The notes under the pieces: generated by a model
The model's database searches: none
Told to the model about the DNA's origin: nothing
Seen by the model: the letters and a program-made list of their open reading frames with translations, nothing else
Program-made: the position numbers and the translations under genes
NCBI GenBank assembly: GCA_044222065.1
Contig: JBGAOA010000004.1
Span: 1 to 64,000 of the forward strand
Source of the DNA: Candidatus Eiseniibacteriota bacterium
GTDB taxonomy: Bacteria; Eisenbacteria; RBG-16-71-46
Direction of reading: 5' to 3'
Length of the DNA stretch: 64,000 nt
In this document: positions 4,551 to 21,538 of the stretch, piece by piece
How positions within the stretch are numbered: the first letter of the stretch is position 1
Layout of the letters: every line of letters begins with the position of its first letter

Positions 4551-5621
4551 ATGACGCTCCCGGCCCGCGCCGCGCTCGGCAAGATCGCTCCCGAAGTCTT
4601 CGACGGACTCATCGCACCGCACCTCGGCGCCGCGCGTGCCGAGGTGCTCGTCGGCCCGCGCGCCGGACACGACGGCGCGATCGTGCGCATCGGCCCCGCG
4701 CGCGTGATGAGCGTCACGACCGATCCGCTCTCGCTCGTGCCGTGCTGGGGGCTCGAACGCTCGGCACGGCTCGCCTGCCACCTGCTCGCCTCCGACGCGT
4801 GGACGAGCGGACTGCCGCCCGCGTACGCGACCGTCAGCTTTGCGCTCCCGCCGGACGTTTCGGACGACGACTTCGCGCGCTACTGGCGCGCGATGAGCGA
4901 GGAGTGGAGCGCTCTCGGCGTCGCGGTCGTCGCCGGCCACACGGGCCGGTACGACGGTGCGGACGGCACGGTGATCGGCGCCGCGACCGTGATCGGCGTC
5001 GGCGACGAGGGCCGCTACCTCGCGCCCTCGATGGCGCGGGCGGGCGACCGCGTCGTGGTGACGAAGGGCTGCGCGATCGAGACGACCGCGATCGTCGCGC
5101 ACCTTTGCCCGGAGCGGCTCGGCGAGCGCCTCGATCCCGAGGGCGTCGAGCGCGCGCGCGGCTGGGTCGAGCGCGTGAGCGTCGTCGCCGACTGCCGCGC
5201 GCTGCTGCGCGTCGGCGTGCGCGAACGCGGCGTCACGTCGCTCCACGACGCGACCGAAGGCGGCGTGCTCGGCGGGCTCGTGGAGCTGGCGAAGGGCGCG
5301 GGCGTGGACCTGCGGATCGAACGCGCGCGCATCCCGCTCGCACCCGAGGCGCGCGCGGCGTGCGAAACGCTCGGCGTGGATCCCTACTGGGCGCTCTCGG
5401 AGGGCACGCTGATCGCGACGGTGCGACCCGAACGCGCGGTCGAGGCGATCGCGGCACTCGCCGAGGACGGCATCGCCGCGGCCGACGTCGGCGAGGTGAT
5501 GGCGGGCGCGGGCCTCGTGTGGCTCGCCGAGTCCGACGGCCGCGTGACGACGCTCGATGCCGTCGAGCCCGATCCCTACTGGGCCGCGTACGGCCGCGCG
5601 GTGCGCGAGGGTTGGCGCTGA
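4551..5621 (+). CDS. AIR synthase (PurM/HypE-like) family protein
   Basis: GHDGAIV, TTDP, VVAGHT, LHDATEGG, SEGTLIA. Confidence 0.85.
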   Translation: MTLPARAALGKIAPEVFDGLIAPHLGAARAEVLVGPRAGHDGAIVRIGPARVMSVTTDPLSLVPCWGLERSARLACHLLASDAWTSGLPPAYATVSFALPPDVSDDDFARYWRAMSEEWSALGVAVVAGHTGRYDGADGTVIGAATVIGVGDEGRYLAPSMARAGDRVVVTKGCAIETTAIVAHLCPERLGERLDPEGVERARGWVERVSVVADCRALLRVGVRERGVTSLHDATEGGVLGGLVELAKGAGVDLRIERARIPLAPEARAACETLGVDPYWALSEGTLIATVRPERAVEAIAALAEDGIAAADVGEVMAGAGLVWLAESDGRVTTLDAVEPDPYWAAYGRAVREGWR

Positions 5622-5715: not shown

Positions 5716-6285
5716 TCAGAACTTGAACGCGATGCCCGCGCTCGCGTTCCAGAAGCTCGGGTCGAAGTCGCCGGACGTGATCGCGTTCGTGCGCTGGCCC
5801 AGGAACACGTAGCGGCCCTGGAAGTCGAGCGACACGAGCGGCGCGAGCGGGAAGCTCATGCCGCCGCCGACGTGGGCGCCGAACTCGGTCTTCGACTCGC
5901 TCGGGATCAGGAACGTCTCCTTGTAGTCGGTCGTCGTGATGTACGCGCCCGCGCCGCCGCCCACGTACAGGATCGGCGTCGGAGCGAGCCACACGGACGC
6001 GGTGACCGGGATCGTGCGCACGTTCAGGTCGCCGTTGAAGTACTCCTCGTTGCGGTAGCTCGCGCCGAAGCCGAGCTTCACCATCGGAGCGAGGCTTTGC
6101 CGCAGCTCGAGGCCGTACGACATCTTGTTCTCGTCGCTGTCGGGCGTGCGCGTGATGCCGACGGACGGAACGATCTCGGCGGAGTGCGCGTTCGAGAGTC
6201 CCGCCAGCAGCAGCAGCAGGAAGACGAGCGAGCCGAACAGCGCCCGCCGGCGGATCGAGATCGAGCGAGAGGTCGGTGCGTGCAT
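5716..6285 (-). CDS. Small outer-membrane beta-barrel protein (OmpW/OmpA-transmembrane-like)
   Basis: Signal peptide, amphipathic strands, YVGGGAG, C-terminal AGIAFKF. Start approximate. Confidence 0.8.
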   Translation of the reverse strand: MHAPTSRSISIRRRALFGSLVFLLLLLAGLSNAHSAEIVPSVGITRTPDSDENKMSYGLELRQSLAPMVKLGFGASYRNEEYFNGDLNVRTIPVTASVWLAPTPILYVGGGAGAYITTTDYKETFLIPSESKTEFGAHVGGGMSFPLAPLVSLDFQGRYVFLGQRTNAITSGDFDPSFWNASAGIAFKF

Positions 6286-6567
6286 GTGGTACTCCGGAAC
6301 GTGGGTCGCGAGCAGGGAGCTTCCGCGCGAGGAGTCGGCCCTCGCGGACACCTCCGCTATCGGCCGCTTCGAACCGCGACTTTCGCGCCCGGCGCGCGTC
6401 TTCCGGGGAATTCACGTCGCCTTCTCATTCGCCGGATTCGCGCACGCGGGATTTCCCAACCGCGCGCGGCGGACGTGCGATTCGCACGGCGGCGGCGCGC
6501 TTGCGCGGACCGGCGCGGCTCCGCGACCCTGCCGGGGCTCGCTTTCCTCGCCCATTCGGAGGTCGTG

Positions 6568-7188: not shown

Positions 7189-7509
7189 GAGGGAGCCGGC
7201 CGACGCGCCGCGATCGAGACTCGGCCGGACCCGACGAATTGTCACCTCGGAAGTTCGGCGCCGCGGCCGTCTATTGATGGAATCACCGAGGCGTTCGCCT
7301 CTCCGACGCGTGTGCTCCGCCCGACAAGCCCCGTCGGCTCGCTCGAATCGCGCCGTCTTCTCGCTCACCGAGACGGCTCGGCCGCGCTATTCGATTCCTG
7401 GCGGAGCACGCGTGTCGCCGGGAGGTTCGGCGTCTCGCCCTCGTCTGCGTGCGCCATCGCTTCGGCGCAGCGCCCGGAGACGCCTCTCGCTCCCCCGAAG
7501 GAGATCCGC

Positions 7510-10500
7510 ATGGGCCCCTCGGTTTCACGCGTCCCGCTGCTCCGGAAGTCCGTCGCCCTCGCGATCGCCGTGATCGCGCTCGTCACGCAGGCCGGCGCGG
7601 CGCGCGCCGCGAACGAATCGCTGTATGGCCAATGGTCGGTGCCGTTCTCGATGGCGCCGACGCCCGGGACCCAGTCGGACATGTGGACGAATCGGTTCAA
7701 CGACGTCCCCGTGAACGCGACGGTCTTCCCGAGTGGGACGCAGGACGCCAAGCTCGTCTACTGGGGTTCGAGCTACGCGTTCTTCCAGCTGCCGTACAGC
7801 TCCACGACGAGCTGGCTCAACCCGGGTTCGCTCACCCCGGTGCGGATTTCCAAGCCGATCAATGGAAGCGGCGCCAGCTCGCCGGACGAGTTCTTCTGCT
7901 CCGGGCAGACGATCATGTCGGACGGCCGCATGATGATTGCGGGCGGCCACATCGGCATCGTGAGCGAGCCTTCGACGAGCTACACGGGGTTCGATCGCTG
8001 GGTGCACACGTACGACACCGGGCCGCGCCTCGCGTACCGCTTCGACCAGGTTCCGGCCAACGACACGCGCTGGACGAAGTTCAACGACATGGGCGTGCCT
8101 CGCTACTACCCGACGGCGACGACGCTGCACGACGGCAGGGTGCTCGTGACCTCGGGAAACGTCGGGCAGTACTACGTGATGCTCGGCGGCGAGACGTCCG
8201 CGGGCGGGAACCCGATCACGGGCCTGCACGTGATCGAGGACTCCGACACCTATCGCCAGTTCTCGCCCACGTTCCGGACCGACTACGGCCCGGCATTGAC
8301 GCCCGAGATCAAGGGACACGCGTCCCTGTACGACGGGCTCACGTACGGACAGGACTACAACCGCTTCCGGGTCATCACGGTCGGCGGAATCGGAATGTCG
8401 GGCGGCTCTCAGGTGTTCAAGAACGACGTGTTCGCGATCTTCCGCCACGACAACCACGACAATCAGAGCTACGCCGACAAGTGGGAGTGGACGACCCTGA
8501 CGCCGAATCCCGGCACGGGCGTCAACTCGCCGCCGGCGGGTCGCGCCTATCACACCGCGGTGAAGGACGTGGCGCGCCGCAAGACCGACGGCACCTGGCA
8601 CATGGATCCCGCAGACCTCACGAAGTACGTCGTGGACAACGTGATGGTGGACTGCGGCACCGAGTTCTCGTGCGGCACGCCGCCGTGCAAGTGCCGCTAC
8701 ACCGGCAGCGTCGTGGTGTTCGGCGGGCTGACGGGCAGCGTCGCGTCGCCGACGCCGACGGACGAGCTGTGGACCTTCTCGTATCGTGCGCGCGACGAGG
8801 GCGGCTTCGCGCCGCCGAACCTCACGCAGTCGGGCTACTGGAACAACACGACCAATCCTTCGCGTGTCGTCGGTACGAACTGGCCGTCCGCTCGCTTCGG
8901 TCACGGCTCGGCCGTCATCCCGAGGCGAAACGTGGTCGGCGCCTCGTCGTCCTCCATTCCCGGCGCGCTGATCGTCTACGGCGGGCGGACGCTCTCGGGT
9001 GGCGTGGAGTCCACGATCGCCGAGAACGGCGACATCTGGGTCTGCAACCTCGAGGACGCGGGCCCCACGTGGACTCGGATCTCTCCCTTGAATGCGGCGT
9101 CCGTCGGCTCACGCGAAGGCGTGAGCATGATCTACAAGCCCTCGATCAGCGGAGACGTCGCGGGCGTGTACCTGTTCGGTGGGCGGCGGAAGGAAGCCAA
9201 CGGCACGTACACCTACTTCAACGACTTCTGGAAGCTGACCTATTCGGTCGCTTCGGACGGTCACACGCTGTCGGCGTGGACGTGGACTCCGATCACGGTC
9301 TCGGGTCCGCTGCCGCTCGCCCGCCATCAGGCGGCGCTCGCACTCGACGACGTTCAGCACGCGCAGTTCATCCTATCGGGAGGCGAGGGACCGCAGTCGC
9401 CTGGAAGCCAGACGATCGTGAAGTTCGGCGACGTTTATCGCCAGCTCGTCTCGACCGCCGTGGCGTTCGAATGGCGCGAGATCATCGCGGGCAGCATCGG
9501 GAATCCCACGGCGCGCTCGGGCCACACGCTCGTCGTGGATCCGCGCATCACGAACGCGCGCACGCACGAGCTGTTCGATCCCGCGACGGGGAACTGGTCG
9601 CCCCTCACCGCGAGCGGGCAGACGCAGCTGTGGATGGAGCAGTACCCGGCGATCTTCCAGCTCGCGGACAAGCGCATCTTCTACGCGGGTCCGTCAAAGC
9701 AGAACCGGATCTTCGACTGGGGCTCGGGCTGGCTGAATCCGACCGGCAGCGGGGCGCCGCGCAGCGTGGGCGTCGGCTCCACGTCCGTGATGTACCGGCC
9801 CGACGTCATCCTGAAGTGCGGCGACGGGACGAACACGACGACCGGACAGATCGTCGAGCGCATCGACTTCACGCTGGGCGCTTCCCCGACGTGGCAGCGG
9901 CTCACCGATCTGCCGGAGCGCCGCTTCCACCACAACATGACGATCCTGCCGAACGGCAACGTGCTCCTGACCGGCGGCGATGCGGGCGGGACGACGATGG
10001 AGACGATGGGCATCACGTCGGAGTCGCGTCACCGGACGCTGATGTGGAATTCCAATTCGTTCTCGGAAGTCGCGGCCGATCCGGTCGCGCGCAAGTACCA
10101 CTCGACCGCCGTCCTGCTTCCCGATGCGCGCGTGCTGACCGCGGGCGGTTTCGGTAAGACCGACACGCTCGCGCACACGGGGGCGATCTACACGCCGCCG
10201 TATCTGTTCAAGGCGAACAACACGATGTACACGGATGCCGAGCGCCCGCAGATCGTGAGCGTCAGCGTCGGCGCACTGGGCTACGACCCTCGTCCGTTCA
10301 CGATCACGCTGAATGCCACGACGCCGATCTCGAACGTCTGCCTGATTCGCGCGTCGGCGGTGACGCACAACTTCAACATGGACCAGCGATACGTGCCGTT
10401 GCGGTTCGTGCAGACCGGCACGCTCGTGACCGTGTCAAAGCTGTCGGCGTTCGCGAACTCGAGCAACCAGACCATTCAGTACGTCGCCGAGGACGACGGC

Positions 10501-11304
10501 GCCAACAACAGCGGGCGCGCCGTCCTCACGCCGGGCTGGTACATGCTCTTCGTCGTCCGCAACGACGGCGTGCCGTCGATCGCGCGCTGGATCCAGGTGG
10601 ATCCGTCGCTTCCGAGCGGCCATCCCACGCCGGACGATGCGAAGCCGGGCGTGTCTCCGATCAGCGTTTCCGCCAGCTGGCAGCCCGGATGCGTGCGTCG
10701 GACCTCGATCGCGTGGACGAACGCGGGCGATGACGACTACACGGGAACGGCGACGAACGTCGAGGTGCGCAAGAGCGTGAATCCGATCACCGATGCCAAC
10801 TTCGCCGGAGCGACACTGGTCGCGTCCGTGGTACCCCTGGACCCGAAGAACTTGCAGGGCGTTTCCTTCGACAGCCCGAGTTCGCCGACCGGGACGTGGT
10901 ACTTCGCCGTGCGCACGAAGGACGAGAACAACAACTTGTCGGCCGTGTCGAGCCGGGCGTTCACCTACACGGGCATGTGTTTCCAGGGACGTGCCTCGGA
11001 GAATCTCCACGCTCCCGAAGCGCTCGTGCTGAAGGCCCCGTCGCCGACGCCGTCGCGTGGCGAGGCGGTGCTCACGTTCGGGATTCCGCAGCGGCTCGTG
11101 AACGAGTCCATCGAGCTGAACATCTTCGATGCCGCCGGTCGCCGCGTGCGGCAGCTCGTCGGCAACACGTCCGGCGACGGCTGGAACTCGGTGCGCTGGG
11201 ATCTGCAGGACGAAAACGGCGGCGCCGCCCGAGCCGGGATCTACTTCGCCCGTCTGAAGGTCGGGCAGGAGCAGCGGACGGCGCGAGTGGTGGTCGTCAA
11301 CTAG
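7510..11304 (+). CDS. Secreted galactose-oxidase/glyoxal-oxidase-like (AA5) copper radical oxidase with an inserted second Kelch propeller, an FN3-like domain and an FlgD-Ig-like C-terminal domain
   Basis: FFCSG, RYYPT, RKYHSTAVLLPDARVL, IYTPPYLF, VTHNFNMDQR; AAGGAG RBS before ATG 7510; signal peptide. Confidence 0.82.
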   Translation: MGPSVSRVPLLRKSVALAIAVIALVTQAGAARAANESLYGQWSVPFSMAPTPGTQSDMWTNRFNDVPVNATVFPSGTQDAKLVYWGSSYAFFQLPYSSTTSWLNPGSLTPVRISKPINGSGASSPDEFFCSGQTIMSDGRMMIAGGHIGIVSEPSTSYTGFDRWVHTYDTGPRLAYRFDQVPANDTRWTKFNDMGVPRYYPTATTLHDGRVLVTSGNVGQYYVMLGGETSAGGNPITGLHVIEDSDTYRQFSPTFRTDYGPALTPEIKGHASLYDGLTYGQDYNRFRVITVGGIGMSGGSQVFKNDVFAIFRHDNHDNQSYADKWEWTTLTPNPGTGVNSPPAGRAYHTAVKDVARRKTDGTWHMDPADLTKYVVDNVMVDCGTEFSCGTPPCKCRYTGSVVVFGGLTGSVASPTPTDELWTFSYRARDEGGFAPPNLTQSGYWNNTTNPSRVVGTNWPSARFGHGSAVIPRRNVVGASSSSIPGALIVYGGRTLSGGVESTIAENGDIWVCNLEDAGPTWTRISPLNAASVGSREGVSMIYKPSISGDVAGVYLFGGRRKEANGTYTYFNDFWKLTYSVASDGHTLSAWTWTPITVSGPLPLARHQAALALDDVQHAQFILSGGEGPQSPGSQTIVKFGDVYRQLVSTAVAFEWREIIAGSIGNPTARSGHTLVVDPRITNARTHELFDPATGNWSPLTASGQTQLWMEQYPAIFQLADKRIFYAGPSKQNRIFDWGSGWLNPTGSGAPRSVGVGSTSVMYRPDVILKCGDGTNTTTGQIVERIDFTLGASPTWQRLTDLPERRFHHNMTILPNGNVLLTGGDAGGTTMETMGITSESRHRTLMWNSNSFSEVAADPVARKYHSTAVLLPDARVLTAGGFGKTDTLAHTGAIYTPPYLFKANNTMYTDAERPQIVSVSVGALGYDPRPFTITLNATTPISNVCLIRASAVTHNFNMDQRYVPLRFVQTGTLVTVSKLSAFANSSNQTIQYVAEDDGANNSGRAVLTPGWYMLFVVRNDGVPSIARWIQVDPSLPSGHPTPDDAKPGVSPISVSASWQPGCVRRTSIAWTNAGDDDYTGTATNVEVRKSVNPITDANFAGATLVASVVPLDPKNLQGVSFDSPSSPTGTWYFAVRTKDENNNLSAVSSRAFTYTGMCFQGRASENLHAPEALVLKAPSPTPSRGEAVLTFGIPQRLVNESIELNIFDAAGRRVRQLVGNTSGDGWNSVRWDLQDENGGAARAGIYFARLKVGQEQRTARVVVVN

Positions 11305-11394: not shown

Positions 11395-12093
11395 TCAGTC
11401 CGTCGCGAGGCGCCGTTCCACTTCGGCTTCGACCTCGGCGATGTCCACGCGGCCGAGCCAGCGGCGGACGATGCGGCCCTCGCCGTCGATCAGGAACGAT
11501 GCGGGCACGGCCTTCACGCGGTAGCGCTCCCACGTCGCGGGCGTACCGCTGTCGAGCGCGACCGGATAGGTCGCCTTCTTCGACGCCACGAACTTCTTCA
11601 CCTTGCGCTCGCCGTCTTCGTCGATCGAGACCGCGAGCACATCGAGCCCGCGCGCGGCGAAGCGCTCGTGCAGGCGCTGGAGTTCGGGCATCGCGCGCAC
11701 GCACGGCACGCACCACGTCGCCCAGAAGTCGAGGTACAGGAGCTTGCCGCGCGAGTCGGCGAGCGTGCGCACGCGGCCGTCGAGGGCGCGCAGCGAGAAG
11801 TCCGGCGCGGGCTCGGCGTCACCGGTCGCCGTGAACGCCGCGGGTTCGGCGTCGAAGGCCTGTTTGCACTTCGCGGAGCAGAAGAAGTAGTCGCGCTCGT
11901 TCCAGCGGCTCGAAGCGCGCACCGGTTCCGCTTCGGCTTCGCCGTGCATCACCGCGCACACGACGCAGCTCGCGCGCGCGGGCGCGCTCGCGGCCGCGGG
12001 AAGCGGCGCCGGATCGGCGGCGTACGATGCGGGCGTGATCGCCGCGAACGAAGCGAGCGAGAGCGCGAGCGACAGGGTGAGCGAGTGGCGCAT
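11395..12093 (-). CDS. Secreted YHS/TRASH-domain + TlpA/ResA-like thiol-disulfide oxidoreductase fusion
   Basis: Signal peptide; CVVC...YFFCSAKCKQAF (YHS-like); APDFSL, DFWATWCVPC, VPASFLID (TlpA); GGAGG RBS. Confidence 0.88.
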   Translation of the reverse strand: MRHSLTLSLALSLASFAAITPASYAADPAPLPAAASAPARASCVVCAVMHGEAEAEPVRASSRWNERDYFFCSAKCKQAFDAEPAAFTATGDAEPAPDFSLRALDGRVRTLADSRGKLLYLDFWATWCVPCVRAMPELQRLHERFAARGLDVLAVSIDEDGERKVKKFVASKKATYPVALDSGTPATWERYRVKAVPASFLIDGEGRIVRRWLGRVDIAEVEAEVERRLATD

Positions 12094-12110
12094 GCCGCGA
12101 ATCCTCCGGA

Positions 12111-12758
12111 TCAGAAGCCGAACGCGAGCGCGATCCCCGCGCGCTCGTACCACGCCCACACCGCCGTCACGCTGAGCCGATCGTTCGCCCACGCCGCGAG
12201 CAGGTGCGAGCGGTGGCCGTCGTACATCGGCGTGAGTGAGAAACCGCGCGACAGGTCCACGTTCGCGCCGAACGGCACGTTGAACGCGTCGTCCCACTCG
12301 GACCAGTTGAGGCTCGCGTACGGTGCCACGAACCAGCCGGGCGGTCGTTTCGCGACCGTCAAGTAGTACGCCTGCGTGTGCGGCGGCGAACCGATGCGGT
12401 CCGAGCTGGTGCCGAGGAACAGCGCGGGGCGCGTGTCGGTCTCGGTCACGAGGAACAGCGTCGCGAGCGGGCCCACTTCCTCGGCCGCCGGATTCGCCTC
12501 GAGGCCGACCTGCAGCCGTTCGTGCACGCGCGCGTTCGCGGTGAATCGCCAGCGCGGCCGGTCGAGCGGCGTGTCCACCCAGCGCCCCGACACGGTCCAG
12601 GTCGTCCACAAGCCGCTCCCCCGGAGCGGCGCGCCCTCGCCGGGTCAGCCGCTTCAGGTCGGCGTGGCCGAGCGCGGTCGCGCGGACGGCTCGGCGGCGA
12701 GCGCCGGCGCGGAAGCGGCCAGCAGCAGGAGCAGCGCGAGCGCCGGAGCGAGCGGCAT
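12111..12758 (-). CDS. Putative selenoprotein with a UxxU motif: signal peptide + U-S-G-U + outer-membrane beta-barrel-like domain (215 aa if both TGA are read as Sec)
   Basis: ATG 12758 with GAGG upstream; MPLAPALALLLLLAASAPALA signal peptide; in-frame TGA at 12656-12654 and 12647-12645; the same frame continues into the 12611-12111 ORF ending AGIALAFGF. Confidence 0.72.
12612..12630 (-). promoter_or_regulatory. Candidate bacterial SECIS element
   Basis: mRNA GCCGCUCC-GGG-GGAGCGGC: perfect 8-bp stem with a G loop, starting after a 14-nt spacer from the second UGA. Confidence 0.6.
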
Positions 12759-12778
12759 CGCGGTTCGCCTCGCGCCCA

Positions 12779-17772: not shown

Positions 17773-21538
<3,766 letters not shown>

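Follow-up and report, generated by a model that had tools for sequence, protein, structure and literature searches.

A window of 64,000 nucleotides from a Candidatus Eiseniibacteriota bacterium (GCA_044222065.1, contig JBGAOA010000004.1, positions 1 to 64,000) carries on its minus strand a reading frame in which a signal peptide is followed by two in-frame TGA codons and then by an open, barrel-like protein. The locus raises the question of whether these codons end translation or are read as selenocysteine (Sec, U), and what a Sec-x-x-Sec (UxxU) motif would do in an exported barrel. The recoding signals, the fold and the gene partnership were established by computation. Judging from comparisons of sequences, both UGAs are almost certainly recoded rather than used as stops, and Sec is very probably incorporated at both sites. 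The protein would thus belong to a genuine two-Sec family, one that seems to be undescribed and whose fold does not figure in the catalogue of selenoproteins, with a conserved reductase and metal-binding partner. As for function, the reading favoured here (probability ca. 0.55) is a selenium-gated channel for soft metal ions that would be reset by a TlpA-type thioredoxin. The features of the locus, all on the minus strand, are as follows.

12768..12771 (-): ribosome-binding-site-like motif GAGG, 9 nt 5' of the ATG, seen in the sequence
12111..12758 (-): full gene, 215 aa with both UGAs read as Sec; signal peptide, Pro-rich linker, UxxU arm, 12-stranded barrel and Phe end
12696..12758 (-): signal peptide, residues 1-21, with an A-L-A cleavage motif, judged by eye and by hydrophobicity
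12654..12656 (-): UGA codon 35, putative first Sec; TGA in 80/80 loci, Cys in CxxU and CxxC relatives
12645..12647 (-): UGA codon 38, putative second Sec; TGA in 80/80 loci, Cys in CxxC relatives
12612..12630 (-): candidate bacterial selenocysteine insertion sequence (SECIS) hairpin with a 7-8 bp stem and a 3-nt loop starting with G, 22 nt past the second UGA and 31 nt past the first
12600..12686 (-): arm preceding strand 1, residues 25-53, predicted from model and alignment to lie in the barrel lumen with UxxU near its tip
12114..12599 (-): 12-stranded amphipathic outer-membrane beta-barrel of the structure model, residues 54-215
12103..12107 (-): GGAGG ribosome-binding site of the partner gene, within the 17-nt intergenic gap
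11395..12093 (-): partner gene without Sec; signal peptide, YHS/TRASH-like domain (CxxC...FCSxxC) and TlpA/ResA-type thioredoxin (WCVPC)

Two in-frame UGA codons and their conservation

From the ATG at 12758, the frame encodes the signal peptide, a Pro/Arg-rich linker and P-T-U35-S-G-U38, followed by 177 open codons that end with Phe215 and the stop TGA at 12113-12111; there are no in-frame stops besides the two TGAs. A sequence-only reading of this DNA had proposed such a TGA pair with CxxC spacing behind a signal peptide, and had anticipated TGA-x-x-TGA or Cys at the same place in homologs. Both points held when the frame was re-read and compared with relatives. Species-representative genomes were scanned with two barrel motifs, which gave 183 relatives, and counts out of 80 refer to the best 80 of these 183; the ranking query carried Cys at both sites, so that the choice was not biased towards TGA. 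TGA-x-x-TGA was found at the same place in 80/80 relatives (USGU in 52, UVGU in 18, UTGU in 4, UAGU in 3, USAU in 2 and UMGU in 1), and the codons flanking and between the two TGAs vary synonymously. An in-frame upstream start codon with a hydrophobic stretch was present in 78/80, as compared to 3/80 and 2/80 for the other two frames; the two exceptions run off their contigs, one of them being a YHS fusion. An ATG within codons 4-35 past the motif was absent in 65/80.

In X5, a second public DNA run, one contig covers 12183-12796 and differs at 2 letters, neither of them at a TGA. The TGAs are not a sequencing error, since the X5 contig agrees and TGA occupies both codons throughout the 80 relatives. 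As to chance, the genome holds 1317 TGA-N6-TGA sites; the flanks are open at 113 of them, and a composition filter leaves 9. Among these 9, solely the present site resembles a signal peptide followed by a protein. Genome-wide reassignment of TGA was rejected, as TGA terminates 532/767 long open reading frames (ORFs), the barrel gene included.

The relatives span Eisenbacteria, Latescibacterota, Gemmatimonadota, Acidobacteriota, Calditrichota, Krumholzibacteriota, Poribacteria and Planctomycetota, the nearest being labelled Candidatus Eisenbacteria. A pattern scan, which adds Armatimonadota, found the barrel after the motif in 103/120 matches; TGA was a selection criterion there, and these matches, being no test of conservation, entered only the work on SECIS covariation, architectures and neighbours. 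At protein level, a search found 622 homologs. Among the matches listed, 118 of 120 are 155-171 aa long and lack the N-terminus, in agreement with the suspicion that gene callers truncate the protein, and the one full-length database entry has Trp at both Sec positions, most likely because a gene caller translated TGA with another code. Since gene callers lose the signal peptide and the active site, a hidden Markov model (HMM) with Sec would correct the annotation in many phyla. The 183 relatives and 622 database proteins would add a large hidden family to the bacterial selenoproteome. Two family members look broken past the UxxU motif (G064:C2:41616-42186 and L174; frameshift-like split, early stop).

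Relatives with Cys were also found. A profile-free deep search (165 representatives) revealed full-length relatives with P-T-C-A-G-C at the place of UxxU, several with an N-terminal YHS. In the 17 CxxC loci, nearly all from Armatimonadota, YHS is fused to the barrel, in up to two or three copies, and a YHS-less TlpA lies directly behind in 13. One locus (L232) is of the CxxU type, reading C-x-x-TGA with the same hairpin. Six rows are common to the UxxU and CxxC alignments whose profiles were compared, which are thus not independent. A distant barrel subfamily has a signal peptide and C-P-L-TGA before the first strand in 4/4 loci read (L242:1372-1986, L273, L274 and L275, in G218, G054, G056 and G059). 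Its hairpin lies in the same register (24/28 cells paired, loop GTT) and it has no NCBIfam match; on these grounds it is probably a second undescribed selenoprotein subfamily. CxxC forms make up one group and C-P-L-U forms another in a tree that was midpoint-rooted and hence does not give the order of events. The database sequences of the distant barrel relatives P0158, P0240, P0156, P0255, P0260 and P0262, seen at protein level, have no Cys pair before the first strand.

Selenocysteine machinery and the SECIS hairpin

The Sec machinery expected by the sequence-only reading was found in the host genome as selB, selD and a canonical tRNA-Sec gene (selC), all above model cut-offs. The selD gene (G000:C79:1319-2500) has an in-frame TGA of its own and is directly followed by the tRNA-Sec gene; selB stands alone on C64. 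As for selA, which is taken up again below, contig C50 breaks off, and contig C72 opens, at the genes that adjoin it in relatives, so that selA probably lies in an assembly gap of this 94% complete genome. Within the same family, 55/59 genomes have it. In the first 50 carrier genomes out of the 80, selA was strong in 47, an edge fragment in one, a weak match in one and absent in one, and selB was found in 43; tRNA-Sec was present in 24/24 carrier genomes tested. A phylum sample of 151 genomes had selA in 144/151 and the barrel in 30/151; the sample includes this genome and the unpublished G082, without which the counts are 143/150 and 29/150, and no claim depends on G082. In the window itself, 4551-5621 (+) encodes an AIR synthase-related protein of the HypE/ThiL/SelD superfamily that falls below all cut-offs and is not a true selD.

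The hairpin was compared with the rules for bacterial SECIS elements given in section 5 of PMC13188914: a loop of 3-9 nt with G, a stem of 4-16 bp, a distance of 16-37 nt from the UGA and a free energy of at most -7.5 kcal/mol. The window hairpin has a 3-nt loop, 7-8 bp, distances of 22 and 31 nt and, taken alone, -14.9 kcal/mol. In the first set of sequences, 92.6% of 624 cells pair and 21 are changed on both sides; in the wider set (99 sequences), 96.5% of 693 cells pair and 133 are changed on both sides, counts that kinship inflates. The covariation score was 0.678 for the 99 sequences; shuffles scored 0.268 and slid partners no more than 0.242. Two of five covariation measures (pairs with double change and further pair types) were not above shuffles. 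The first loop base was G in 99/99. For the 17 genes of the CxxC form, pairing at these columns amounts to 69/119 cells (58%), and 8/17 have the loop G. Rfam SECIS models gave no match to the hairpin region.

Since both UGA distances fall within 16-37 nt, a single hairpin can serve both UGAs, and one SECIS probably does so here; the same was proposed for UxxU hydrogenases in the available part of PMC13582414. The locus offers a test bed for the way in which a single bacterial SECIS acts on two UGAs three codons apart. It also lends itself to comparing selenium with sulfur, because one and the same scaffold occurs in UxxU, CxxU and CxxC versions, which often share a genome.

The barrel, its arm and the partner gene

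The structure model gave an all-beta, 12-stranded barrel, matching the ca. 12 amphipathic strands counted in the sequence-only reading. The protein has the marks of an outer-membrane barrel, namely a signal peptide, an even number of amphipathic strands and a terminal Phe, the last of which was found in 94% of 123 aligned members. Conserved barrel residues are R59, R71, E87, E94, D120, R121, M178, D180 and H185. The arm became ordered once the alignment extended over it (predicted local distance difference test, pLDDT, 68-81), and it aligns with the lumen-filling N-termini of COG4313, FapF, FadL and autotransporters. We consider it likely from the model that the arm folds inside the pore, with UxxU beside the conserved Met, Asp and His. 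Another small exported beta-barrel-like protein with a Phe end and no NCBIfam match is encoded at 5716-6351 (-) of the window.

No known family accounts for the protein. NCBIfam 20.0 gave no family at E 0.01 for the 123 members, the full protein or the variant forms; Pfam gave two stray matches near E 0.01 for the members and none for the full protein, and there was no sequence match to any chain of a solved structure. The COG4313 channel Pput2725 (4rl8) and FapF (5o65) show 8-11% identity, are ca. 100 residues longer and have a plug without a Cys/Sec pair. The nearest named predicted structures, YjbH (PF06082) and DUF5777 (PF19089), with a template modelling score of 0.83, are small barrels without the UxxU arm, and YjbH stays below the Pfam gathering score (best E 0.0085, in 1/123 members). 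The SelL-type UxxU motif lies in a thioredoxin fold, and a SelL-type or Prx-like thioredoxin-fold protein was ruled out here by the all-beta model and the lack of a thioredoxin HMM match. Outer-membrane Sec is not new in itself: the porin ExtI of Geobacter reportedly contains Sec, and it shares with the families NF049945 and NF041027 a Sec in an outer-membrane protein or complex. All three differ from the window protein in having one Sec each, in being large barrels or cytochromes and in lacking a sequence match to it. To our knowledge, a YHS-TlpA partner is known for none of them. In the 2026 catalogue, NF049945 is listed as an FCYXU-type TonB-dependent receptor and NF041027 as the GSU2204 family (PMC13188914).

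The claim that UxxU is rare and of the SelL type needs to be narrowed, as the motif is not confined to SelL-type thioredoxin folds: the accessible parts of the sources report it in Prx-like (PF00578), metal-binding NF041115 and FmdB-family (TIGR02605) proteins (PMC13188914) and in group 4 [NiFeSe] hydrogenases (PMC13582414). These share with the window protein two Sec at CxxC spacing and a single downstream SECIS proposed for both UGAs; unlike it, none is a beta-barrel. A small barrel with UxxU is absent among the 119 prokaryotic selenoprotein families in Table 1 of the catalogue (PMC13188914). The accessible text of PMC12013277, including four supplementary files, had no match for four motifs, and that of bioRxiv 10.64898/2026.09.15.751765, which lists unannotated SECIS loci, does not mention barrels; its supplements might include the family. 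A literature search, whose coverage largely left out subscription papers and the source paper of the Tso families, returned no description of it. The proposal of a possibly undescribed outer-membrane di-selenoprotein family thus gains support from the lack of NCBIfam, Pfam and catalogue matches and from the two TGAs in all of the 80 relatives.

The partner gene starts 17 nt past the barrel stop and is preceded by GGAGG. As the sequence-only reading had stated, it encodes a redoxin (PF00578 and PF08534 above cut-off); the YHS domain is now added as part of the system. Because the redoxin falls below the cut-offs of the equivalogs ResA and TlpA, it is called TlpA/ResA-like and not an ortholog. 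The YHS domain scores 21.6 bits against PF04945 (gathering score 30.3), and exceeds the cut-off in several orthologs and fused forms. A match to the YHS-TlpA gene was found in 74/80 loci (one with YHS fused to the barrel) and the TlpA domain in 70/80, four of the ten misses having <260 nt of sequence remaining. The TlpA domain was also found in 41/67 further loci (those with 1.5-kb flanks) and 13/17 CxxC loci. At least 11 of the 67 have a UxxU barrel that carries YHS as a fusion, and YHS-TlpA often lies upstream of it. There were no other widely conserved neighbours in the 80 and 67 loci, and the upstream M14 peptidase and DUF4097-like genes were excluded from the system, not being conserved beside the barrel.

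Some individual loci have other surroundings. At L244:4594-10688 (G052:C13), the UxxU barrel lies between a CusA/CzcA-family resistance-nodulation-division (RND) operon and a P1B heavy-metal ATPase, without TlpA. In L245, L246 and L276 (Armatimonadota), an operon consists of an ArsR/SmtB regulator, the UxxU barrel and YHS-TlpA, and in L276 selA lies ca. 1.5 kb from this operon, on the other strand. A gene run at L247:4258-7861 (G219:C5) contains a TonB-dependent receptor, a two-YHS protein and a YHS-fused UxxU barrel. In the window, a large exported protein at 7312-11304 (+) has a radical copper oxidase (GlxA/galactose oxidase-like) region, kelch-like repeats and a C-terminal sorting-type domain; its gene ends just past the YHS-TlpA gene on the opposite strand, and the protein may be a copper client, but its gene was not seen to recur beside the barrel in relatives.

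Function of the system and alternative readings

The proposed selenium-gated channel would work as follows. SelB and tRNA-Sec would read both UGAs under the guidance of the one SECIS hairpin inside the coding sequence, and the product would be exported and fold as a 12-stranded outer-membrane barrel. The arm would fold back into the pore from the periplasmic side, bringing U35-x-x-U38 near Met178, Asp180 and His185 at the outer mouth. The reduced selenols of U35 and U38, aided by Met, Asp and His, would form a high-affinity gate for a soft metal ion, most likely Cu(I), with Zn, Cd, Ag or Hg as possible alternatives. The co-encoded periplasmic TlpA would keep the Sec pair reduced, and the YHS domain would receive or sense the metal. 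Taken by parts, TlpA quite probably acts on the arm, and a metal ion as cargo is mildly favoured. In its most specific form, the proposal of an undescribed three-module envelope system found across numerous poorly studied phyla, comprising a pore whose diselenol plug gates it on the inside and selects soft metals, a dedicated thioredoxin and a YHS receiver, with both Sec inserted through one SECIS, is tentative and rather less likely than the channel as such. We know of no example of a selenium-gated membrane channel. If the plug model is true, it would be a new means of making an outer-membrane pore selective or switchable. Precedents for the metal steps are the copper response of a YHS domain in the available text of PMC4626032 and, in that of PMC6696091, the Bradyrhizobium system in which TlpA reduces ScoI and CoxB before copper loading. 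The latter shares a periplasmic thioredoxin that reduces a Cys pair, but ScoI and CoxB are inner-membrane-anchored Cys proteins, whereas here the partner carries YHS and would act on a Sec pair that belongs to an outer-membrane barrel.

Several points weigh against this reading. The arm was placed by means of alignment ranges and secondary structure, together with a covariation measure open to inflation by kinship, and its pLDDT is only 68-81. The 71-nt stretch folded alone was as stable as shuffles (z -0.07), with the hairpin absent from the minimum-energy structure; the SECIS-like hairpin of the sequence-only reading is thus supported by cross-genome covariation and the bacterial SECIS rules, not by single-sequence folding energy. 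In the host genome, selA was not found with two models, and its co-occurrence with the barrel (47/50) does not discriminate because selA is near universal in the phylum. An expectation that Cys forms would occur in Sec-free genomes failed: 14/17 CxxC genomes have selA and 12/17 also have a two-TGA copy, from which the CxxC form appears to be a paralog and not a replacement. In the CxxC forms, Leu or Ile stands in place of Met178. Genes for metal transport seldom adjoin the barrel (CzcA-like or P1B-like in 2/80, 3/67 and 1/17 loci), and the clearest metal-pump context is one Fimbriimonadaceae lineage with a CusA/CzcA pump on one side and a P1B ATPase on the other. The UGA region lies outside the RNA contigs of runs X15 and X16, which are uninformative on expression.

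The rival that survives best, though still rather unlikely in our estimate, takes the same selenoprotein as a thiol-redox device: electrons from TlpA would pass to the arm diselenide, the arm would reduce or isomerise disulfides, peroxides or chalcogen compounds at or beyond the outer membrane, and YHS would be a structural zinc site or a docking module. The one constant neighbour is indeed a thioredoxin, the UxxU/CxxU/CxxC spacing is a classic redox motif, metal transporters seldom adjoin, and the YHS here has four Cys (CxxC...CxxxC), which is compatible with structural zinc; most catalogued selenoproteins are also thought to be redox enzymes, according to the available part of PMC13188914. 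However, YHS stays with the system through domain shuffling, with two or three copies on CxxC barrels, heavy-metal efflux and ArsR contexts exist, and a pore-buried site would be poorly placed for protein substrates.

An improbable alternative to the metal channel is a redox-operated valve, in which a stable diselenide merely locks or gates the plug of a channel for an unrelated small solute and TlpA opens it. This would leave the persistent YHS domains unexplained, and no conserved catabolic or secretion genes lie nearby, although the closest solved plugged folds (COG4313, FapF and FadL) move organic solutes or polypeptides and not metals, and the lumen is rich in conserved Arg, Glu and Asp.

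It is marginally less probable again that one or both UGAs are recoded as Cys by a system of the tRNA-ReC/selC* type, which also uses SelB and SECIS and would yield a CxxC or mixed protein. This idea draws on the enrichment of tRNA-ReC in genomes with UxxU hydrogenases, including 5/5 Armatimonadota in the available part of PMC13582414, on the richness of Armatimonadota in the barrel family and on the unassembled selA of the host. The host, however, shows one UCA-anticodon tRNA, the canonical 98-nt tRNA-Sec adjoining selD, together with one ordinary tRNA-Cys, one cysteinyl-tRNA synthetase and one SelB, and 13 second-best matches to the tRNA-Sec model in carrier genomes are ordinary Ser, Leu or Gly tRNAs. 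Neither a tRNA-ReC-like gene nor a second cysteinyl-tRNA synthetase was seen in the host, where a divergent or unassembled tRNA-ReC could escape. Finally, there is a negligible chance that the TGAs are true stops, with a short secreted leader ahead of a barrel that starts on its own and has no signal peptide, or that the gene has decayed: most long ORFs of the genome (532/767) stop at TGA and database entries hold the barrel alone, but a conserved start past the TGAs was not found, conservation is of the coding type on both sides of and between them, intact relatives have Cys at the same positions, and the covarying SECIS is confined to TGA forms.

Two minor observations concern the rest of the window. 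No sigma-70 promoter or terminator consensus was found between positions 11200 and 15500. At 19814-20400 (-), the frame of an argininosuccinate synthase ends in a long low-complexity tail with ca. 3 near-identical repeats of ca. 30 residues.
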